Part shown: one piece after another, positions 5,776 to 25,854 of the stretch
How positions within the stretch are numbered: position 1 is the first letter of the stretch
Layout: each line of letters starts with the position of its first letter
The notes under the pieces: model-generated
The model's database searches: none
What the model was told of the DNA's origin: nothing
Seen by the model: only the letters and a program-made list of their open reading frames with translations
Made by a program: the position numbers and the translations under genes
NCBI GenBank assembly: GCA_038249055.1
Contig: JBBRWS010000001.1
Coordinates: forward strand, 14,244 to 78,243
Direction: 5' to 3'
From: Minisyncoccia bacterium
GTDB lineage: Bacteria; Patescibacteriota; Minisyncoccia; Phycocordibacterales; UBA9973
Length of the DNA: 64,000 nt

Positions 5776-7464
5776 ATGGTCAATCGAATTATTACATTTC
5801 TTAATAAAGAATTTCGGGGAGTAAATGAAGCCGCCTTATTGCTTGGCGGTTTTGCTTTCCTTTCTCAGTTACTTGGGCTTATTCGAGATAGAACACTTGC
5901 TCACATAGTTGGACCAGGTCCAATGTTAGATGTCTATTATGCCGCCTTTAGAATACCAGATTTTTTATATATATCTATAGCATCTCTTGCTTCTGTTACA
6001 GTTCTGATGCCATTTTTAGTAGATAAAATAAATAACAATAGCGATACTGCAGATAAAGCACGTTCATTTATAAATAATATTTTTAGCGCTTACATGATAT
6101 TTATGGTATCTGCCAGCATAATAATTGCTATATTTATGCCATATATAGTTTCTTATATGGTTCCTGGTTTTAATGAATATCAAATTAATTTACTTATTAC
6201 AACAAGTAGAATAATGCTATTATCTCCGATTTTTATTGGACTTTCAAATTTAATCGGTACAATAACTCAGCTATTTAGAAATTTTCTTATTTTCTCTTTA
6301 TCTCCAGTTTTTTATAATGTTGGAATTCTTTTTGGAATAATATTTCTTTATCCAAGGTTTGGTATTTATGGTTTAAGTATGGGAGTTATACTAGGAGCTT
6401 TGATGCATTTTCTTATTCAAGTTCCTGTTGTTATAAAACATAATTTCTTTCCTAAATTTATTTTAAAAATTAGATGGAAAGAAATACTTCACGTTGTAAA
6501 ATTATCAGCACCAAGAACGCTGACTCTTTCTTGTAATAGTTTAGCTTTCATTTTTCTCATTGCGATGGCTTCAACTCTTAAAGAGGGTTCTATCTCTTTA
6601 TTTACTTTTGCTTTTAATCTACAATCTGTTCCTGTTGGAATTATTGGAATTTCATATTCTGTCGCGGCTTTTCCAATCTTAGTTAAATCATTTTCCATGA
6701 AAGATATGGATAATTTTATAGATCAAATAATTTTTGCTGCTAGACAGATTATATTTTGGTCTTTACCAGTTATTACTCTTTTAATAGTGCTTCGTGCTCA
6801 GATTGTACGTGTTATACTTGGTTCCAATACTTTTTCTTGGGCCGATACTCGTTTAACTGCTGCATCAGTTGCTCTGTTTGTAATTTCTCTTGCATCTCAA
6901 GGACTTGTTTTATTATTTGTTCGAGGATATTATGCTGCAGGGAATACAAAAAAACCATTATTTATAAATGTTTTTTCATCTGTAATGGTTATTGTCTTTG
7001 CTCAATTGTTAATTTATATATTTAATAATTATCCTAATGTTCTCTTAAAATTAGAATTAATTTTAAGAGTTAAAGATGTTCCCGGAACCATAATGCTCGC
7101 ATTACCACTAGCTTATGCAACAGGTTCACTTTTGAATTTCTTTTTAATCTGGTTTTTATTTAAAAAAGACTTTCTACATAATAAAAAAATAAATTTATCT
7201 TTAACTTTTATTCAAAGTTTTGCAGGAGCAGTTGTTATGGGGTCAGTCGCATATCTTTCATTGGGATTTTTTGATAATATATTTAATTTAAATACAGGTT
7301 TAGGTATTTTCCTTCAAGGATTAATATCTGGAATTATGGGTATTGCTTCTGGGGTATTTGTTTTAATTCTGTTAAAAAGCAATGAATTATTTGGTATTAT
7401 TCATGCTCTTAGAAATAAATTTTGGAGAAACAGAGTTATTGCACCAGAACAGGCGGATTTATAA
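5776..7464 (+). CDS. murJ: Lipid II flippase MurJ (MviN)
   Basis: N-terminal LSQLLGLIRDRTLAHIVG..DVYYAAFRIPDFLY, 14-TM-like profile, 562 aa. Confidence 0.85.
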   Translation: MVNRIITFLNKEFRGVNEAALLLGGFAFLSQLLGLIRDRTLAHIVGPGPMLDVYYAAFRIPDFLYISIASLASVTVLMPFLVDKINNNSDTADKARSFINNIFSAYMIFMVSASIIIAIFMPYIVSYMVPGFNEYQINLLITTSRIMLLSPIFIGLSNLIGTITQLFRNFLIFSLSPVFYNVGILFGIIFLYPRFGIYGLSMGVILGALMHFLIQVPVVIKHNFFPKFILKIRWKEILHVVKLSAPRTLTLSCNSLAFIFLIAMASTLKEGSISLFTFAFNLQSVPVGIIGISYSVAAFPILVKSFSMKDMDNFIDQIIFAARQIIFWSLPVITLLIVLRAQIVRVILGSNTFSWADTRLTAASVALFVISLASQGLVLLFVRGYYAAGNTKKPLFINVFSSVMVIVFAQLLIYIFNNYPNVLLKLELILRVKDVPGTIMLALPLAYATGSLLNFFLIWFLFKKDFLHNKKINLSLTFIQSFAGAVVMGSVAYLSLGFFDNIFNLNTGLGIFLQGLISGIMGIASGVFVLILLKSNELFGIIHALRNKFWRNRVIAPEQADL

Positions 7465-10093: not shown

Positions 10094-10164
10094 GCGGGAT
10101 TGGTTTAGTGGTAGGATGCGACCTTCCCAAGGTTGAGGCACGAGTTCGATTCTCGTATCCCGCA
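10094..10164 (+). tRNA. tRNA-Gly (anticodon CCC)
   Basis: Acceptor gcgggat/atcccgc, anticodon loop ttCCCaa, T-loop ttcgatt; hand-folded. Confidence 0.75.
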
Positions 10165-10197
10165 CATATTTAAAAACACTGAAAGGTGTGTTTTTAA

Positions 10198-10342
10198 ATA
10201 TGTGCGGGATAGTAAGCCAACTGCTTGGCTTACGTGCGAGAATCGAAAAGCTTTTCGTTCTCCGATGGATATCGGAGCGAAAAGGTGTACTGAAGCTGTA
10301 AGCTTCGATAAACGTACTCGCGGTCTCGTATCCCGCACATAT
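10198..10342. repeat. tRNA-Gly-linked structured unit 1: 14-bp terminal inverted repeats atatgtgcgggata...tatcccgcacatat (right end identical to tRNA-Gly 3' end), internal hairpins
   Basis: TIRs and hairpins (gtaagcc-aactgc-ggcttac, ctccgat-ggat-atcggag, cgaaaagcttttcg) read directly. Confidence 0.6.
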
Positions 10343-10374
10343 CTAAAAAGACTCTTTAAAGAGTCTTTTTTAAT

Positions 10375-10540
10375 ATATGTGCGGGATAGCAAAAGAACTG
10401 CTTCTTTTGCGTGCAACGATTAGTAAATCGAACCGTGAGGAGAATCGAAAGGCTTTTCCTTGTCGAAGATGGAAAAGCACCAGCGACCGTGATTTACAAA
10501 AATCACCTACTGGGTCAGGCGAGATTTTTGTATCCCACAT
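10375..10540. repeat. tRNA-Gly-linked structured unit 2 (diverged paralog of unit 1; right TIR degenerate tatcccacat)
   Basis: Same start atatgtgcgggatag, same hairpin loop aactgc with compensatory stem caaaag/cttttg, shared gagaatcgaaag(g)cttttc block. Confidence 0.55.
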
Positions 10541-12619: not shown

Positions 12620-13333
12620 TTAATTTAGTACAGGAATATCGTCTCCCATACGTTTTAATTTTTCAAATATAAGTATATTGATAATCGTGACGACCCATAA
12701 AAATCCAAAAACAGAAAGGAAATTTTCGCCACTTCCTTTCATTATAAAAAAATTAAAGATACTATGCAATAGAATAGCACAGATGATACCAATAAAAAGA
12801 TATATTACTCTGTATTGTTTTAAATAAAATGATAATCCTAGTGCGCTACCAATCATAGCACTTGAGATAGCATGTAATAATGTGGAACCAAGAAATCTCA
12901 AATTACCTGTAAGCATTCCTACTATTGCTCCGCTTACACTAAATGGATTTAATAAATAAAGAATATTTTCTAATGCTGCAAAACCCAAAGCAGTTGCTAT
13001 AAAATACATAGGATAATCAATTGGTTTATCAACATTTTTATTTCCCCATATTATAATTATTACTCCTAAAAATTTAAGCAGCTCCTCTATGGCGGCCCAT
13101 ATTATTGTTTGTGCTGTTTTGTCATTAATAAAACTCATTGAGTATTTTTCAAGCCAAATAGCCATAAAAACAAGCAATCCTCCTATAATAAAAGATATAA
13201 TAATAAGTCCCGTTGGCTCGCGTTCATCGCTGTCTTCTTGTTTAAGCCAAAACCAAAGCCAAAAAATAGCTGGAATCAATCCACTTGCTATAGCTAAAAG
13301 TGAAGTTTTAGGATCTCTCAATAAATCAATCAT
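12620..13333 (-). CDS. PrsW-family intramembrane protease
   Basis: AAIEELLKF (EExxK) and ALGFAALENILY motifs, multiple TM helices. Confidence 0.6.
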   Translation of the reverse strand: MIDLLRDPKTSLLAIASGLIPAIFWLWFWLKQEDSDEREPTGLIIISFIIGGLLVFMAIWLEKYSMSFINDKTAQTIIWAAIEELLKFLGVIIIIWGNKNVDKPIDYPMYFIATALGFAALENILYLLNPFSVSGAIVGMLTGNLRFLGSTLLHAISSAMIGSALGLSFYLKQYRVIYLFIGIICAILLHSIFNFFIMKGSGENFLSVFGFLWVVTIINILIFEKLKRMGDDIPVLN

Positions 13334-13447
13334 TCCAGTAGTAAAATTTTAATATTAATTTGTATTTTATTCGACCTCATTTTATAAATATTATATTTTT
13401 TTATTTTGTAATCAAAAATTTACTACGGGACAAGTATGATTATATTT

Positions 13448-19691: not shown

Positions 19692-21026
19692 ATGAAAAAT
19701 TATAAACAACATTTTAAAGGAAAGAAGATTACTGTGATGGGGCTTGGTCTTTTGGGTCGTGGTATTGGATACACTAAATTTTTATCTGAATGTGGTGCGG
19801 ACTTGATAGTTACAGATTTAAAAACAAAAGAACAACTCGTATCTTCAATAAAAGCTTTGAAAAAATTTAAAAATATTAAATTTATACTTGGCGAACATAG
19901 ACTGGAAGATTTTAGAGATAGAGATATGATTATAAAAGCTGCTGGGGTACCACTTGATTCTATTTATATAAAAGAAGCAAAGAAAAATAATATCCCAGTT
20001 GAAATGGATGTATCTCTCTTTGCTAAATGTGCACCTAAGGTGGTAATAATTGGTGTTACAGGAACAAGAGGTAAATCAATGACAACTACACTTATATATG
20101 AAATATTAAAAGCTAATGAAAAATTTTTAAACAAGAATGTTTATGTTGGGGGTAATCTCCGTGGAGTAGCAACTTTACCTTTACTTAAAAAGGTAAAAGA
20201 AGGGGATATTTTAATTTGTGAACTAGACTCTTGGCAGTTACAAGGTTTTGGTGAAGCAAAACTTTCACCGCATATTTCTATATTCACATCATTTATGCCT
20301 GATCATATGAATTATTATAAAGATAATATGGAAAAGTATTTTGATGATAAGGCAAATATTTACAAATATCAAAAGGAAAATGATATTCTTATTATTCGTC
20401 CTAAAATGAAAAAATTAATTCCTCCAAATATTAAAAGTAAATTGATAGTTATAAATAAAAAAGAAATAGAAAGTTGGAAATTTATTGTTCCTGGGGAAAA
20501 TCAAAGAGAAAATTTAGCTTGTGCCGTAAAGGTTGCAGAACAATTTGATATCCCTATATCTAAGATTAAAAAAGCTGTGGAAGATTTTAAGGGTCTTGAA
20601 GGACGCATGCAATTATTGAGTTCTTATAAAGGAATTAAGATTTATAATGATAATAACGCTACTACACCAGAGGCAACAATTTCGGGAATTGAATCATTAA
20701 AAAGTGAAAAGAAAAATATTATTTTAATTTGTGGAGGTGCAGATAAAAATCTTCCGTTAGATAATTTTGTAAAACTTATAAATAAAAACTGTAAAACTAT
20801 AGTGTTAATTCCTGGGACAGGGACTGATAAGCTAATTAATAATTTTAACTTAAAAATTAAAAATGAGATAGGTAAAGATTTAAAAGATGTAGTACAAAGA
20901 GCTGTTAAACATACAAAGAAAGGAGATATTATTTTATTCTCTCCAGCTTTTGCTTCTTTTGGTATGTTTAATAATGAATACGAACGCAATGATCTTTTTA
21001 TGAAGATTATAAAAAATTTGAAATAA
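19692..21026 (+). CDS. murD: UDP-N-acetylmuramoylalanine--D-glutamate ligase MurD
   Basis: KKITVMGLGLLGRG N-terminal Rossmann, GVTGTRGKSMTTTLI. Confidence 0.9.
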   Translation: MKNYKQHFKGKKITVMGLGLLGRGIGYTKFLSECGADLIVTDLKTKEQLVSSIKALKKFKNIKFILGEHRLEDFRDRDMIIKAAGVPLDSIYIKEAKKNNIPVEMDVSLFAKCAPKVVIIGVTGTRGKSMTTTLIYEILKANEKFLNKNVYVGGNLRGVATLPLLKKVKEGDILICELDSWQLQGFGEAKLSPHISIFTSFMPDHMNYYKDNMEKYFDDKANIYKYQKENDILIIRPKMKKLIPPNIKSKLIVINKKEIESWKFIVPGENQRENLACAVKVAEQFDIPISKIKKAVEDFKGLEGRMQLLSSYKGIKIYNDNNATTPEATISGIESLKSEKKNIILICGGADKNLPLDNFVKLINKNCKTIVLIPGTGTDKLINNFNLKIKNEIGKDLKDVVQRAVKHTKKGDIILFSPAFASFGMFNNEYERNDLFMKIIKNLK

Positions 21027-21030
21027 TTTT

Positions 21031-21594
21031 ATGAGTAATCCATTAGAACTGTTAGAGGTGGTAGATGATAATGACAATGTCATAAGGATTGAGACAAAAG
21101 AAAAAATTCATGAAGATGAGTTGCTTCATCGTGATGTCCATATTTGGTTTATAACCCCTAATGGAGAAATGGTTTTTCAACATAGGTCAAAAAATAAAAA
21201 TCTATTACCAGATAAGTTGGATTCAACAGTTGCTGGTCACGTAGAATTAAATGATTCCTATGAAAAGACCGCGATTAAGGAGTGTAAAGAAGAGACTGGT
21301 ATAGATATAGATGTTAATAAACTTGTGTTTTTAATAAAAAAGAAAAAAAGTGCAGTCAATCATGTTAATGGAAAATCTCATAATACTATAGGCGTTTTGT
21401 ATGTGTATTTGTACGAAGGCAAAATAAGTGATTTAAAAGTAGAAAAAGATGACGGGGAAGGTTTTGAGCTTTGGAAGATTGATGAATTGCCTCATCTCTC
21501 TCTAGAAGATAAATCTAAATTTATTCCAGAAATTCTTTGTGAAGAAATGTTTATTCTTTTTAATAAAGCAAAAAATATTTTTAATATAAAATAA
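21031..21594 (+). CDS. Nudix hydrolase
   Basis: Nudix-box-like GHVELNDSYEKTAIKECKEETGI. Confidence 0.65.
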   Translation: MSNPLELLEVVDDNDNVIRIETKEKIHEDELLHRDVHIWFITPNGEMVFQHRSKNKNLLPDKLDSTVAGHVELNDSYEKTAIKECKEETGIDIDVNKLVFLIKKKKSAVNHVNGKSHNTIGVLYVYLYEGKISDLKVEKDDGEGFELWKIDELPHLSLEDKSKFIPEILCEEMFILFNKAKNIFNIK

Positions 21595-22043
21595 TGAAAA
21601 ACAAAAATAAAAAAACAATAGTTATTTGTTCAAGTGCTTCTTTTTATACTCAAGCCGTTGAAATAGAGAAGCAGTTAAAAATTTTGGGTTTTAAAGTCAA
21701 GATTCCATTAGTAGCTAATAAAATGAAGAAAAGCGGAGATTTTAATGTTGATACATATAAAACTTGGAACGAAAGACCAGAAGATTATAAAATAAAATCA
21801 TATCTTACAAAGAAGCATTTTATTGAAATAGAAAAAGGTGATATTGTTTTAGTTTTGAATTATAAGAAAAATGTGAAAGACGGATATATTGGCGGGGCTG
21901 TTTTATGTGAAATGGCGATTGCTTTTTATCTTAAAAAACCTATTTACATATTAAATAAAATAGATGAAAGTTCTTCTCTTAAAGAAGAAATTTATGCGAT
22001 GTCCCAAAAAATAATTAATGGCGATTTATTAAAAATTAAATAA
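21594..22043 (+). CDS. Nucleoside 2-deoxyribosyltransferase-like protein
   Basis: C-terminal GGAVLCEMAIAFYLKKPIYIL resembles G..FE.G.A.A.GKP motif of the family; weak. Confidence 0.4.
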   Translation: MKNKNKKTIVICSSASFYTQAVEIEKQLKILGFKVKIPLVANKMKKSGDFNVDTYKTWNERPEDYKIKSYLTKKHFIEIEKGDIVLVLNYKKNVKDGYIGGAVLCEMAIAFYLKKPIYILNKIDESSSLKEEIYAMSQKIINGDLLKIK

Positions 22044-22047
22044 TAAT

Positions 22048-22656
22048 ATGAAAAAACAAATTATTTTTATCAGGGGAGGGGAAACTTTTGCTAATAAAGA
22101 AGATTTTTATACTTTTCTTAATACAACAGATATTAATCCATACGAAAACAAAAAACATTGGAGAGATGAAGTTATTGAAAAAATAGCAGAAACTTATGAC
22201 CCTTTGGTTCCCAATATGCCATTGAGAGAAAATTCGGATTATAAAGCTTGGAAAATTTGGTTTGATAGACATTTGGATTTTATATATGACGAAAGTCCTA
22301 TTCTTGTTGGAACTTCATTGGGTGCTACTTTTTTATTAAAATATTTATCTGAAAATGGTTTTTCAAAAAAAATTTCTCAATTACATTTAATGGCTCCTTG
22401 TGTTACAGATGAAGGGCAACAACTAGAGAAACTTTCAACTTTTGAGTTTGATGTAACTAAAATAAATAAGATTTCTAATCTTTGTAAAGATATTCATTTA
22501 TGGCATTCAAAAGATGATAAATTTGTGCCATTTAAAAATTCGGAAATTGTTAAAGAGAATCTCCCAGATGCTTTCTTCCATATTCTTGAAGATAAAGGTC
22601 ATTTTAACATAGAATCGTTTCCTGAAATATTGGAAGTTATAAAAAAAGTTAATTAA
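22048..22656 (+). CDS. Alpha/beta serine hydrolase, YdeN/RBBP9-like
   Basis: GTSLG nucleophile elbow, 202 aa. Confidence 0.5.
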   Translation: MKKQIIFIRGGETFANKEDFYTFLNTTDINPYENKKHWRDEVIEKIAETYDPLVPNMPLRENSDYKAWKIWFDRHLDFIYDESPILVGTSLGATFLLKYLSENGFSKKISQLHLMAPCVTDEGQQLEKLSTFEFDVTKINKISNLCKDIHLWHSKDDKFVPFKNSEIVKENLPDAFFHILEDKGHFNIESFPEILEVIKKVN

Positions 22657-22660
22657 TTTT

Positions 22661-23290
22661 ATGAAATTAATTCTTTCTTCAGACGGTAGTTTTTTGCTCA
22701 AATATGGATATGGACTAACTGGTATTCCAAAAGATCAGATGAGAATTGGCTATATTACAACTGCTTACAAGGTTTCTCGTAATAATTGGGATTTTTTTGA
22801 TAATTATAAAAATAAAGTCATAAAAGAAGGATATAATCTTGAAGAAATAGATATTGAAGACAAAAGCGAAGAAGAATTAAGAATTTTTTTTAAAGATAAA
22901 AATGTAATTCACATAGAAGGCGGAAATACTTTTTATTTGTTAAAAGTTATAAAAGAAACTGGTTTTGATAAAATTCTTAAAGAATTATTGGAAGAGGGTA
23001 GAGTCTATATTGGAACAAGTGCTGGAGCTTATGTTGCTTGTCCTACCATAGAAGTTTCTACTTGGAACGAAGATGGAAAGGATAGATTTGGGATTACAGA
23101 TTTTAATGCATTAAATTTAGTTCCATTTGTTTTAAAAGTTCATTATAAAGATGAACAAAAAGAAAAAGTGAAATTAAATATGAAAAATTGTAAATATCCT
23201 ATTAGAATATTAAGGGATGGACAAGGTATAATAGTAGATGATACTAATTATATATTTTCAGGTGATGGGGAAGAATTAATTTTAAATTAA
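22661..23290 (+). CDS. Peptidase E-like (S51 family / class I glutamine amidotransferase-like)
   Basis: IHIEGGNTFYLL and YIGTSAGA motifs. Confidence 0.6.
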   Translation: MKLILSSDGSFLLKYGYGLTGIPKDQMRIGYITTAYKVSRNNWDFFDNYKNKVIKEGYNLEEIDIEDKSEEELRIFFKDKNVIHIEGGNTFYLLKVIKETGFDKILKELLEEGRVYIGTSAGAYVACPTIEVSTWNEDGKDRFGITDFNALNLVPFVLKVHYKDEQKEKVKLNMKNCKYPIRILRDGQGIIVDDTNYIFSGDGEELILN

Positions 23291-23398
23291 AACTTGTCCC
23301 GTACTAAATTTACGGTTAGTAAAAAGTTTTAAAAATATGTTTACAACATAAAGTCGTGATAAAAAATAATTAATATTAAAAATTTTAGTACGGGGATG
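23291..23398. repeat. Junction stem-loop element C, copy C1: arms cttgtcccgtactaaattt / aaattttagtacggggatg, right arm ends at start codon of next gene
   Basis: ~15-bp inverted repeat with ~65-nt AT-rich loop; loop ~85% identical to copy at 24437-24536. Confidence 0.6.
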
Positions 23399-23905
23399 TA
23401 TAAAAGAATTATAATTTTTGGTGGAGGTGGATCTGGAAAATCTACTCTCGCAAATAGAATCGGTCTTTATACTGGTTATCCTGTGTATCATTTGGATAAT
23501 ATACTTTTAAATTCTGATTGGAGTATAAAAGATAAAAATGATTGGGAAGAAATAAGTAAGCAGTTTCTGTTAAGAGATACTGGGGTTGTTGATGGTAATT
23601 ATTCATCATCCTTACCTAATAGATTAAGTTGGGCTGATTTGGTTATTTATATTGATATTTCAACTAGAGTTCAATTATGGCGTATTTTTATAAGAAATAT
23701 TAAAATAAGAGTTGGAATAGATAAAAGACATGGGTTCCCTGATGGTTCAAAAGAAAAATTAAGTTTTAAATTTATTTCATGGGTGTATCATTGGAATTCA
23801 TCTCATCGGGTTAAAATGTTTTCTTTGTTAGAATCTATAGAAGATAAAAAAGTTTTAATTATTAAAGAACCAAGAAAATTAGATTTAAAAAAATTATTTA
23901 ATTAA
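23396..23905 (+). CDS. P-loop NTPase, FlaR/topology-modulation-protein-like kinase
   Basis: IIIFGGGGSGKSTLANR Walker A at N-terminus, ~170 aa. Confidence 0.5.
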   Translation: MYKRIIIFGGGGSGKSTLANRIGLYTGYPVYHLDNILLNSDWSIKDKNDWEEISKQFLLRDTGVVDGNYSSSLPNRLSWADLVIYIDISTRVQLWRIFIRNIKIRVGIDKRHGFPDGSKEKLSFKFISWVYHWNSSHRVKMFSLLESIEDKKVLIIKEPRKLDLKKLFN

Positions 23906-23916
23906 ATAAAATTATA

Positions 23917-24024
23917 CTTGCCCCGTACTAAATTTTCGATTAAGTTAGATATAATTTTAAAAATAAATTATTAATAAAATATTAGATATAAATATATGAT
24001 AAATAATAAAAATTTTAGTACTGT
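23917..24024. repeat. Junction stem-loop element C, copy C2: arms cttgccccgtactaaatttt / aaaattttagtactgtggtg
   Basis: Same inverted repeat as C1; right arm lies inside the annotated N-terminus (MINNKNFSTVV) of the next ORF. Confidence 0.6.
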
Positions 24025-24424
24025 GGTGAAAACAATTTTAGTTGATGCGGTGTTTTGTTTTATTATAGAAAAAGAAGAGGGTAAATTTGAGATTTTTCAA
24101 GATATGTATAAATTACTTGAAACATATCCAAATAAAAAAATAATTCTTACTGGTGCGAGTGATGATAAAAGAGAGCTATATGGTTTGGATAAAATGCCTT
24201 ATGAGGTTTTTACTTTAAAGCATAATCCAGAAAAAACAGACCCAGAATATTATAAAATTTTATTAAAGAATTTTGATTTAAATAAAAATGATGTAATATA
24301 TTTTGAGCATGATATTAACGCAGTAAAAAGTGCTCAATCTTTAGGAATAAATACTTATCACTATGATAATGATATAAAAGACCTGGAAAGTCTTAAAAAG
24401 TTTATAGATGAAAACTTAAAATAA
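23996..24424 (+). CDS. Hypothetical protein (possibly HAD-like); true start may be the GTG at ~24023 directly after the repeat arm
   Basis: ORF; N-terminal 9 codons encoded by repeat element C2. Confidence 0.35.
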   Translation: MINNKNFSTVVKTILVDAVFCFIIEKEEGKFEIFQDMYKLLETYPNKKIILTGASDDKRELYGLDKMPYEVFTLKHNPEKTDPEYYKILLKNFDLNKNDVIYFEHDINAVKSAQSLGINTYHYDNDIKDLESLKKFIDENLK

Positions 24425-24436
24425 TATACTTCTTTC

Positions 24437-24536
24437 TAAATTTTTGATTAGTAAAAAATCTTGAAAATATGTAGTATGTATAATATAAGGATGTGTTAAA
24501 AATAATTAATATTAAAAATTTTAGTACTGGGATGGA
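24437..24536. repeat. Junction element C, copy C3 (left arm degenerate), immediately upstream of murC start
   Basis: ttagtaaaaaatcttgaaaatatgt...taaaaataattaatattaaaaattttagtactgggatgg about 85% identical to C1 interior and right arm. Confidence 0.55.
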
Positions 24537-25854
24537 ATTAGATTTATCAAAAATTAAAAATGTGCACTTTATAGGTATTGGAGGAATAGGTATTTCAGCG
24601 ATTGCCCGTATGATGCTTCATGATGGAAAAATAGTAACTGGGCAGGATATGCAAGAAGGAGAAGTGGTAAAAGAGCTTATTAAACTTGGAGTTGATATAA
24701 AAATAGGGCAATCATATGAAAATATACCCTTAGATACTGATTTAATAGTTTATACTATTGCAATAGATACTTATGACTCAGATTTGGCTTTAAAAATAAA
24801 AACTCAAACAGAAATTCCAGTTCGTTCATATCCTCAAATGCTTGATATTATAAGTAAGGATAAATATACAATTGCGGTTTCGGGAACTCATGGAAAGACA
24901 ACTACAACAGCTATGATTGCCCAAATTCTGCGTGGAGCGGAATATGATCCAACTGTAATAGTTGGAAGTTTACTTGTGGGTGAAAAAAGTAACTTTATTG
25001 CTGGAGATAGTAAATATTTGGTTGTTGAAGCATGTGAATATAGAAGGTCATTTTTAAATATAAATCCTAAAATTTTGGTTATTACTAATATTGATAATGA
25101 CCATTTAGATTATTATAAAGACATAGAAGATATTAAGAGCGCATTTCACTCGATGGCTTTGAAAGTACCAGAAGATGGATATGTAATTTGTAATCCAGAG
25201 GATAAAAATATCGCTGATGTGATAAAAGATATTAATGCTAAAGTTGTAAATTATAATGATTTTTTTAATGTAAATTTAAAGTTGAAAATTCCTGGAATTC
25301 ACAATAAAAAAGATGCAGCAGCAGCGATTACAGTAACCACAATCCTAGGTGTTTCTATTGTTGACTCAGAAAAATATATCGGCGAATTCCCAGGGACCTG
25401 GAAACGATTTGAATTTAAAGGCACTTTATCTCAGGGTTCACTCTTGTATGATGATTATGCTCACCACCCTACAGAAATAAAAGCAACACTTGAAGGATTT
25501 AGAGAATTATATCCCAAGAAAGATAAATGGATAATTTCTGTTGTTTTTCAACCTCATTTATTTAGTCGTACAAAATTACTTTTATATGATTTTGCAAAAA
25601 GTTTTAAAGAAGCCGATGAAGTTATCATTTTACCAATTTATTATGCAAGAGAAACTGACGACGGGACTATAAGCTCAGATATTTTATGCTCGGAGATAAA
25701 TAAAATTAGTAACAATTCTAAATCTTTTGAAAACTTTGAAAGTGCAGAAATATATTTAAAAAATAATCTTTTAAAAATGGATAATAAAAATATTATAATT
25801 ACTATGGGGGCAGGTGATGCTGGAGATGTTGGGGACTCTCTTTTAAAAGGATAA
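24532..25854 (+). CDS. murC: UDP-N-acetylmuramate--L-alanine ligase MurC (start placed at ATG of MELDLSKIKNVHFIGIGG; the ORF-track GTG start at 24493 lies in repeat C3)
   Basis: VHFIGIGGIGISAIA, GTHGKTTTTAMIAQIL. Confidence 0.9.
   Translation: MELDLSKIKNVHFIGIGGIGISAIARMMLHDGKIVTGQDMQEGEVVKELIKLGVDIKIGQSYENIPLDTDLIVYTIAIDTYDSDLALKIKTQTEIPVRSYPQMLDIISKDKYTIAVSGTHGKTTTTAMIAQILRGAEYDPTVIVGSLLVGEKSNFIAGDSKYLVVEACEYRRSFLNINPKILVITNIDNDHLDYYKDIEDIKSAFHSMALKVPEDGYVICNPEDKNIADVIKDINAKVVNYNDFFNVNLKLKIPGIHNKKDAAAAITVTTILGVSIVDSEKYIGEFPGTWKRFEFKGTLSQGSLLYDDYAHHPTEIKATLEGFRELYPKKDKWIISVVFQPHLFSRTKLLLYDFAKSFKEADEVIILPIYYARETDDGTISSDILCSEINKISNNSKSFENFESAEIYLKNNLLKMDNKNIIITMGAGDAGDVGDSLLKG

Follow-up and report, generated by a model that had tools for sequence, protein, structure and literature searches.

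The stretch of DNA analysed here, called the window below, comprises 64,000 nucleotides of contig JBBRWS010000001.1 from a Minisyncoccia bacterium of the phylum Patescibacteriota (assembly GCA_038249055.1), and it contains, between murD and murC, an accessory island in which a stem-loop repeat of about 100 bp recurs. The island follows murD directly, with no copy of the repeat in between, and in its first part the genes are separated by spacers of 0-4 nt and the junctions are element-free. Three copies then occupy consecutive junctions, in the order element, kinase-like gene, element, HAD (haloacid dehalogenase)-like gene, element, murC, and these are found where a preliminary description of this DNA had placed them. 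A fourth copy, overlooked there, lies on the reverse strand between leuS and prsW. All four are co-oriented with the downstream gene and end exactly at its ATG or GTG, which had been claimed for the three island copies and is seen at each of them (ATG at 23396, GTG at 24026 and ATG at 24532). The coordinates are collected in Table 1.

Table 1. Copies of the repeat element and neighbouring genes in the window (positions of the window; ORF, open reading frame; CM, covariance-model score).
Feature	Position	Strand	Remarks
Element copy 4	13334-13435	-	leuS/prsW junction; prsW ATG (13333-13331) directly next; CM 79 bits
murD	19692-21026	+	last 8 codons MKIIKNLK, then stop; in five related species a duplicate of this sequence follows the element as a mini-ORF
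Accessory island, first part	21031-23290	+	Nudix, 149-aa ORF, serine hydrolase, peptidase S51
Element copy 1	23292-23395	+	between pepE (S51) and the P-loop kinase gene; CM 74 bits
P-loop kinase-like gene, 169 aa	23396-23905	+	ATG right after GGGG of copy 1
Element copy 2	23916-24025	+	left arm 23922-23935, right arm 24010-24025, GTG at 24026; CM 74 bits
HAD-like gene, 132 aa	24026-24424	+	GTG start abutting copy 2
Element copy 3	24428-24531	+	right arm 24516-24531, murC ATG at 24532; CM 42.8 bits
murC	24532-25854	+	starts at the ATG after copy 3; orthologues begin MNLDL/MELDL

The three island copies start with ACTTGT or ACTTGC, followed by the left arm CCCGTACTAAATTT, an AT-rich loop of 66-74 nt and the right arm AAATTTTAGTAC(G/T)G(G/T)G. 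In copy 1, which has ACTTGT, the left arm occupies 23298-23311 and a loop of 68 nt leads to the right arm AAATTTTAGTACGGGG (23380-23395). The left side of copy 2 is ACTTGC and CCCC, and its TGC/GTG pairing is a covarying variant of the helix base described below. Copy 4 carries the arms GTAG/CTAC in place of GTAC/GTAC, a compensatory swap of a C-G for a G-C pair, and at the orthologous leuS-prsW junction of a relative (L061; related loci are designated by L and a number) the element has GTAC/GTAC. The island copies are a genuine structured repeat with shared arms, as had been described, except that in copy 3 the outer half of the left arm is gone (ACTTCTTTCTAAATTT), leaving about 10 AU pairs at most and an intact right arm. 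The loop identity of about 85% reported for copies 1 and 3 applies only to sub-blocks (84-97%), the whole-element identity among the window copies being 68-75%.

Both arms occur in the window far more often than expected, with 8 matches to the right-arm pattern (0.93 expected) and 6 to the left-arm pattern (0.68 expected), and in neither case did any of 100 shuffles reach the observed count. Exactly four copies are found in the 64 kb by nhmmer and by an unfiltered covariance-model scan. It is worth pointing out that the default filters of Infernal lose three of these four, which the same model finds with the filters off, so that divergent copies in AT-rich flanks (loci L002-L084) are undercounted. 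With Rfam 15, the window gives only tRNAs at the gathering thresholds and nothing over the elements at E<=10. A lone left-arm-like sequence, CCTGTACTAAATTA, is present at 12621-12634 of the reverse strand, where it supplies the final codons and stop codon of prsW, with the ATG of the next gene 5 nt further on; it may be the remnant of an element that once replaced the gene end.

Folding of the element, suggested as a check in the preliminary description, was carried out on the aligned copies. RNAalifold independently gives one long-range helix and no conserved structure in the loop, and 98% of the alignment cells are paired (83 copies). On the sense strand this helix has 13-18 bp with two bulges. 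The search pattern used for metagenomes left four base pairs free, which thus form an unbiased block. Among the matches listed, this block reads GTAC/GTAC in 76 copies, and compensatory variants are found as GTAT/ATAC (9), GTAG/CTAC (9) and ATAG/CTAT (1); 13 copies vary by G·U only and about 6 have true mismatches. The L175 lineage adds a further arm variant, GAAAT/ATTTC.

The start codon itself is part of the base of the helix. Covariation links the nucleotide preceding CCC to the one that follows GGG: 80 copies combine T with A and all 5 copies with C have G, with none discordant among 86, and the C/G cases include both genes with a GTG start. The first base of the start codon therefore belongs to the helix, which ends in U-G-U opposite A-U-G or in U-G-C opposite G-U-G. 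Both arm types are present in one and the same genome, and orthologous junctions carry different ones (leuS-prsW in the window and L061, adk-murE in L033 and L073), for which reason co-evolution with a family-wide binding protein is insufficient as an explanation. A shared translational control structure, which the preliminary description had offered as an alternative, would be compatible with a covariation that takes in the start codon.

We now turn to the distribution of the family. The exact two-arm pattern is found at 83 loci in about 60 species-representative metagenome-assembled genomes (MAGs), most of them named Candidatus Nomurabacteria, Paceibacterota or Parcubacteria and some only uncultured Saccharibacteria or bacterium, and it has zero matches among viral contigs. 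A looser arm pattern is present in more than 120 metagenome contigs, again among the matches listed. The largest assemblies hold 3-4 exact-pattern copies each, and the copy number is roughly 5-10 per genome of about 0.7 Mb. The family consensus reads ACYTGT-CCCGTACTAAATTTTTGATTA, an AT-rich loop of about 55 nt, AAAATTTTAGTAC-T-GGG, and then ATG. A start codon, ATG or GTG, directly follows GGG in 63 of the 86 copies of the genome set, and ATG does so in 107 of the 114 listed copies of the metagenome set. No description of the element turned up in the literature on the element itself, on leaderless translation in the candidate phyla radiation (CPR) and on GIY-YIG genes with inverted repeats, and the repeat family thus appears to be undescribed so far.

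The element had been tied to the junctions of the island, and this does not hold, since it is found before rplK, gatA, serS, murE, gyrB, pheT, nusG and prsW in dozens of species. The downstream proteins keep their native N-termini (L11, GatA, SerRS, MurE, GyrB, PheT, NusG, S14, S17, L24, PrsW, TsaD, enolase, ClpB and others), and some junctions are conserved, such as nusG-rplK in 8 species, murD in 5 and gatC-gatA in 4. The downstream genes are functionally unrelated and the loop is variable and without conserved structure, which does not match a riboswitch or a protein-binding leader. On the upstream side, a co-directional ORF ends within 20 nt of the element in 89 of 138 start-abutting copies, most often at 4 nt, and few upstream ORFs (9 of 173) read into the left arm, in contrast to those at the nuclease cassettes described below. 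Another 36 of the 138 lack an adjacent ORF; they are preceded instead, at 3-9 nt, by a -10-like box (TG-extended in 15), so that transcription would start near the first base of the element and the whole element would be transcribed. About one tenth of the start-abutting copies have neither context.

A number of more unusual contexts were also observed. One copy abuts the ATG of a gene for a XerD-like tyrosine recombinase of 316 aa (L202, about 1350 nt). In a family of secreted proteins (L021, L023, L024, L025, L030, L041, L064, L068 and L077), the start codon lies within the loop and the right arm encodes the signal peptide (..SKILVLGLIL..), the repeat having turned coding. In GC-richer Parcubacteria, the same AT-rich arms bracket a tRNA directly, in place of the loop (L039 1354-1472, L058 479-596, L075 1621-1740 and L076 1412-1534); these tRNAs are Ile-GAT twice and Arg-CCG twice. 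Finally, a conserved non-coding block (L012 4700-5250, L017 5450-6000, L028, L040, L063 and L066) consists of a DnaA box CTGTGGATAAC, an element copy, and then a terminator on the opposite strand with about 110 nt of conserved sequence (..CUGUAGCGGGUGGUCGCACUCACAUAGGCACAUAUGUUGGAGUUUCGCCAUCAC..). This block has no Rfam match and may represent an origin region together with a small RNA of a new type.

For the interpretation of these positions, the translation signals of the host are essential. A Shine-Dalgarno (SD)-like motif precedes only 4 of 60 genes of the window, which is chance level. In five relatives (L012, L017, L028, L063 and L190) the 3' tail of the 16S rRNA is GGAAUAAUUCAAUUUG, with no CCUCC, and the molecule ends in GGAAUAAUUCAAUUUGAAAAA in place of GGAUCACCUCCUUA. 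The same tail shows no convincing complementarity to the element that could serve as an alternative anti-SD. The distribution of strong -10 hexamers, frequently of the form TGnTAnnnT, has its maximum exactly 6 nt upstream of the ATG (59 of 455 ORFs, compared to a background of about 5). This is the signature of leaderless transcripts, implying that leaderless mRNAs are widespread. Operon-internal spacers in the window span 0-10 nt, and an insertion of 100 nt into such a junction should therefore break expression unless it is compensated.

The ends of the element are homologous to those of a small nuclease cassette. In L027 (6728-7043), arms of the same type, CCCCGTAGTAGATTTTTGAAT and ATTCAAAAATTCACTACGGGG, enclose an ORF of 88 aa (6754-7020) that is a GIY-YIG catalytic domain (PF01541, E=2e-17), with a miniature copy 1.5 kb away. 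Six further cassettes with homologous arms (L205, L209, L216, L221, L224 and L228) were fetched via related proteins. The cassettes are about 320 bp long, and their inverted-repeat ends, CCCnGTAGTAGATTTTTGA.. and ..TCAAAAATTCACTACnGGG, bracket the 88-aa gene. Their outer arm is conserved as CCC-N-GTAGTAG/CACTAC-N'-GGG, where N pairs with N', and the inner arms vary yet stay complementary (TTGAT/ATCAA, ACGACT/AGTCG, TGAGAT/ATCTCA, TAGCTT/AAGCTA and TAAATT/AATTTA). The termini of cassettes and miniatures align with each other, the bulged U of the miniature corresponding to a position that is paired in the cassettes. The 88-aa protein has more than 1400 relatives at E<=1e-10. The best 120 of these are 67-100% identical and mostly 80-100 aa long; few of them carry names, and the named sources are Paceibacterota, Nomurabacteria, Parcubacteria or Patescibacteria. 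Other small GIY-YIG genes, within CCCC...GGGG repeats of a different sequence, are present in L039, L058 and L091.

The insertion sites of the cassettes resemble those of the miniatures also in what happens to the flanking genes. Cassettes follow glyA, where four protein variants occur, and rny; others lie within a prepilin leader and ahead of engB, and in the last case (L221) the arm ends with GGG directly at the engB ATG. Where a cassette follows glyA or rny, a TAG within its left arm now terminates the upstream gene, whose original C-terminal codons survive beyond the right arm in a short ORF ending a few nt before the next gene. The miniatures after murD in five species show the same arrangement: murD ends in ..IIKKLK and stop, followed by the element and then by a mini-ORF, MK(I/L)(I/V)K(K/N/G)LK and stop, whose stop lies 0-6 nt before murC or a hydrolase gene. 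The mini-ORFs, conserved and translatable, keep the old stop-start distance, and the AUG at the foot of the helix can therefore be argued to be a real ribosome entry point.

Three further observations concern the cassettes. In L205 (1440-1800) the cassette lies in a type IV prepilin leader, where the right arm encodes ..QKFTTG and is followed by FTLVEV, and the pilin has a new start codon inside the 3' end of the nuclease gene; the miniature-encoded peptide KNFSTG is similar to a prepilin leader, a hint at the possible source of the arm sequence. In L058 the GIY-YIG cassettes are flanked by duplicated tRNA 5' ends, near the arm-bracketed tRNA. The window itself contains, after tRNA-Gly (10094-10165), two tandem units of about 190 nt (10159-10400), each made up of a copy of the tRNA 3' end (CTCGTATCCCGCA) and a perfect 23-bp hairpin (ATCCCGCACATATTTAAAAACAC / GTGTTTTTAAATATGTGCGGGAT). 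This CCC...GGG palindrome resembles the brackets of other GIY-YIG cassettes, such as CCCCTCACATAAATT of L091, and the units may be an integration scar or an 'empty' bracket.

Comparison of relatives shows that the element comes and goes. The adk-murE and tsaD junctions lack it in the window and carry it in L033, L073 and L081. At the same junction, L033 and L073 have different loop subfamilies, and loop subfamilies are common to non-orthologous sites. There are thus several copies per genome and presence/absence differences between relatives, in an element that measures about 100-115 bp, has arms of 14-18 nt and contains no conserved ORF in its loop, all of which is typical of MITEs (miniature inverted-repeat transposable elements). 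The murD-murC interval is indeed an accessory island, as had been stated: in L003, L018 and L033 it holds one element and the mini-ORF, followed by murC, and in L079 there is one extra gene. In L038 an accessory hydrolase gene follows the mini-ORF, and the locus ends before the rest of the interval. In the close relative L140 the order is hydrolase and kinase genes (overlapping and element-free), a methyltransferase gene, an element with a decayed left arm, the HAD gene, an element, a second kinase gene, an element and murC. The two elements around the second kinase gene are near-identical, including 10 nt upstream. Clusters of the type element-gene-element are also found in L157 and L183. The proposed cassette-boundary role is borne out in so far as units come and go; the element is not confined to cassette junctions or to the island.

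As to the genes of the island, the Nudix, serine hydrolase and peptidase assignments of the preliminary description are confirmed by Pfam (NUDIX, Ser_hydrolase, Peptidase_S51) and that of the HAD gene is weak, while the ORFs called NDT-like (21594-22043) and FlaR-like kinase (23396-23905) have no Pfam match at E<=0.001. The latter ORF has a clear P-loop, GGGGSGKST, and two paralogues in L140; its orthologue there is element-free and overlaps the upstream hydrolase gene. The HAD orthologue of L140 is likewise GTG-initiated after the right arm. It had been noticed that automatic ORF calls pick up repeat-encoded KNFST peptides, and this is seen in the mechanical ORF list, which extends ORFs into the repeat as MINNKNFSTV.. 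and ..IKNFSTGMELD... Such extended N-termini (KNFSTG..) occur in the lists of both the window and L140, and the calls for the Logan contig L001 contain an extended HAD ORF of 142 aa. For murC, the upstream GTG start of the mechanical list was rejected on the basis of the orthologous N-termini in Table 1. Knowledge of the element is thus useful for annotation, as ORF callers can run ORFs into it.

The explanation that we favour, and consider moderately probable, is that the copies are MITE-like, ORF-less derivatives of the GIY-YIG cassettes, whose arms fold in the mRNA so as to keep the downstream gene translatable. Cassettes and miniatures occupy the few nt between co-directional genes, or between a leaderless promoter and the ATG, with the GIY-YIG nuclease presumably mobilising the miniatures, and recombination between copies would reshuffle the small genes that they flank. 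Translation in the host depends on leaderless mRNAs and on re-initiation from stop to start over 0-10 nt, and as the host has no SD/anti-SD pairing, we infer that the helix loops out the insert. More specifically, the arms would pair in the sense transcript, and the U-G-U/A-U-G and CCC/GGG pairs would be melted by a ribosome that terminates 7-16 nt ahead of CCC. The remaining helix would then hold the AUG beside the terminating ribosome, such that the downstream gene could be translated despite an insertion of 100-300 nt. In promoter-proximal copies, the 5' end of the transcript would take the place of the terminating ribosome.

Several points weigh against this explanation. The window copies contain no ORF, and an HMM (hidden Markov model) search finds no GIY-YIG ORF anywhere in the window. 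No GIY-YIG enzyme is known to act as a transposase, and no transposition chemistry is known for this family. No target-site duplication was detected at the miniatures, since flank k-mers match no better than permuted pairings; the sole duplications near miniatures are the longer gene ends at murD. The single-sequence folding energies are ordinary, with z-scores of -1.2 to -1.8, and copy 3 folds no better than shuffled sequences. Wobble intermediates exceed A-C ones by 10 to 2, which corresponds to C-to-T changes on the sense strand, and with a GC skew of about +0.2 the excess of G·U pairs may in part be strand mutation bias. Decay of the left arm is seen in copy 3 and in the element before the HAD gene of L140 (L140_HAD in alignment A4), where the right arms, murC and the HAD gene are all intact. 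The helix can therefore be dispensed with, and the right arm might have a function of its own. Uniform orientation and the exact junction must be due either to selection or to insertion specificity. Finally, the tRNA-Ile and tRNA-Arg brackets, the DnaA-box region and the protein start inside the loop fall outside the translation model.

The alternative that we rank second, and regard as rather unlikely, is a cis-regulatory RNA owned by the host, the helix of which would be a signal for RNase III or another endonuclease to cut beside GGG and AUG and so convert internal cistrons or transcripts with long leaders to (near-)leaderless mRNAs, the form favoured by the ribosomes of the clade, or would silence the AUG on read-through transcripts. 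It accounts equally well for the exact abutment of the AUG, which the need for a 5'-terminal AUG predicts, and it is consistent with a covarying helix that takes in the start codon, with a leaderless clade without SD and with the junctions kept across species (nusG-rplK, gatC-gatA and murD). The length of the helix and its two bulges would be compatible with RNase III, and precedents exist in the hairpins of T4 homing-endonuclease genes and in Correia elements with RNase III (PMC2988022, PMC2649163). The arms around the two kinds of tRNA look like a processing stem and fit this alternative better than the favoured explanation. However, about 1% of the genes carry the element, and these differ between species and have no common function; the same junction is occupied or empty depending on the genome, and murC, an essential gene, tolerates a decayed left arm in front of it. 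The stem for 16S processing in L017 is unrelated in sequence, and arms acting as a generic rRNA processing stem were rejected on this ground. The second rank is given because the patchy distribution, the loop subfamilies shared by non-orthologous sites and the homology to the cassette arms stay unexplained by such an RNA.

Two other alternatives relate to DNA rather than RNA. A promoter module, in which a short-leader transcript would originate from the right-arm TAAAAT or from loop hexamers, with an inverted repeat that is incidental, is in our judgement very unlikely. The right arm is better conserved than the left and stands at a fixed distance from the ATG, its -10-like TAAAAT precedes the ATG by 12 nt, the distance at which the ORF survey has a second -10 peak, and two loop subfamilies contain hexamer pairs (TTGAGT-N18-TATAAT and TAGACA-N17-TAGATT). 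On the other hand, the right arm has no consistent -35 or TG extension, the promoters of the clade being TGnTAnnnT at 6 nt, and no -10 position is common to all loops. In the copies with a -10-like box upstream of the left arm, moreover, the whole element would be in the transcript, and both the arm covariation and the TGC/GTG coupling are left unexplained. A universal promoter in the loop was rejected, as the hexamer pairs are subfamily-specific, and so was the right arm as a leaderless -10, because TTTAGT, the hexamer at the canonical distance, is without the A at -11 that is essential; TAAAAT at 12 nt remains a weak rival. Less probable again is a site for DNA site-specific recombination, attC-like or Xer-like, that delimits gene cassettes moved by a recombinase. 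The three consecutive copies flanking small accessory genes, the element-gene-element clusters of L140, L157 and L183, the permuted cassette order in L140 and an attC-like build, with an imperfect palindrome in which two bases are bulged and the loop varies, all speak for it. Yet most copies are single and precede housekeeping genes, and start-codon abutment and AUG pairing play no part in such a model. No associated integrase or attI site turned up, albeit in a study that made no systematic integrase search, and the XerD-like gene of L202 is just preceded by a copy. Ordinary homologous recombination between repeats of about 100 bp can explain the rearrangements as well. The attC cores are absent, the arm consensus CCCGTACTAAATTT/AAATTTTAGTACTGGG being without AAC/GTT.

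It is instructive to compare the element with known systems. The Correia elements of Neisseria (CREE, Correia repeat-enclosed elements, or NEMIS, Neisseria miniature insertion sequences) and the enterobacterial ERIC or IRU sequences (enterobacterial repetitive intergenic consensus, intergenic repeat units) are non-coding intergenic repeats of about 100-150 bp with terminal inverted repeats, which are co-transcribed, fold as mRNA hairpins, alter the expression of adjacent genes and are polymorphic between strains (PMC2649163, PMC2229807, PMC10969869). The element described here is also a polymorphic, non-coding intergenic inverted repeat of about 100 bp with a probable hairpin in the mRNA, a resemblance that is functional. 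It differs in sequence and host phylum, in the lack of a TA duplication or IHF (integration host factor) site, in its low copy number, in being always in sense orientation with the 3' arm ending exactly at the start codon, and in a putative parent that encodes a GIY-YIG nuclease and not a DDE transposase. The element thus resembles known MITEs but stands out by its strict relation to the start codon in a clade without SD.

In phage T4, RNA hairpins sequester the initiation signals of homing-endonuclease genes (seg) on read-through transcripts (PMC2988022). The resemblance is again functional, as these, too, are small nuclease genes wedged between host genes in the same orientation, with site-specific insertion, comparable to the four different cassettes after glyA. 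Here, however, the nuclease of 88 aa consists of a catalytic domain and shows no recognisable DNA-binding domain, the entire ORF lies within the inverted repeat and neighbouring gene ends are duplicated or replaced. The window copies, which have no ORF, are not homing-endonuclease cassettes, a designation closer to the nuclease-encoding relatives (L027, L205, L209, L216, L221, L224 and L228), and an ORF-less miniature multiplied to many junctions is unlike classical homing. The architecture also recalls the repetitive extragenic palindromes (REPs), their paired form (REPINs) and the associated tyrosine transposases (RAYTs), with palindromic non-coding repeats, a small nuclease gene flanked by the same palindromes and covariation that keeps the hairpin. 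There, the enzyme is HUH/Y1 rather than GIY-YIG, and REPs are 20-40 nt long, have hundreds of copies, usually lie downstream of genes and stand in no relation to start codons.

In the leader of the cauliflower mosaic virus (CaMV) 35S RNA, a ribosome shunt takes place in which a short upstream ORF ends a few nt before the base of a long helix and initiation resumes just 3' of it. The position of the upstream stop, 7-16 nt ahead of CCC, and that of the AUG, at the helix's 3' foot, would be analogous to this arrangement, and a likeness may also be drawn to bacterial translational coupling by ribosome-mediated unfolding. By contrast, around a quarter of the copies have a -10 box instead of an upstream ORF and another tenth have neither, and shunting in these bacteria is a proposal drawn from sequence. 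With integron attC sites the element shares an imperfect palindrome with bulged bases and a variable centre, placed between co-oriented small genes. It is, however, not an attC site, in agreement with the preliminary description: the R''/R' cores (RYYYAAC/GTTRRRY), tested on the arm consensus, are absent, and most copies are solitary and stand before core or housekeeping genes.

A bolder proposal, which we put forward as doubtful, is that the 88-aa GIY-YIG gene and its miniatures constitute a new class of mobile element that inserts before start codons, and that their RNA ends act as a ribosome shunt replacing the lost SD interaction. The minimal nuclease would recognise the hairpin-forming ends, and the terminating ribosome, or the 5' end, would be handed across the loop of 70-300 nt to the AUG. 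Should the favoured explanation be correct, the element would be the first repeat family of its kind described for the CPR/Patescibacteria, and it would link three little-understood traits of these ultra-small genomes: the very large family of tiny GIY-YIG genes, the turnover of cassettes in conserved operons such as murD-murC, and SD-independent translation. The rule that the helix ends at the AUG would then provide a handle on how internal cistrons are initiated in bacteria of the leaderless type.

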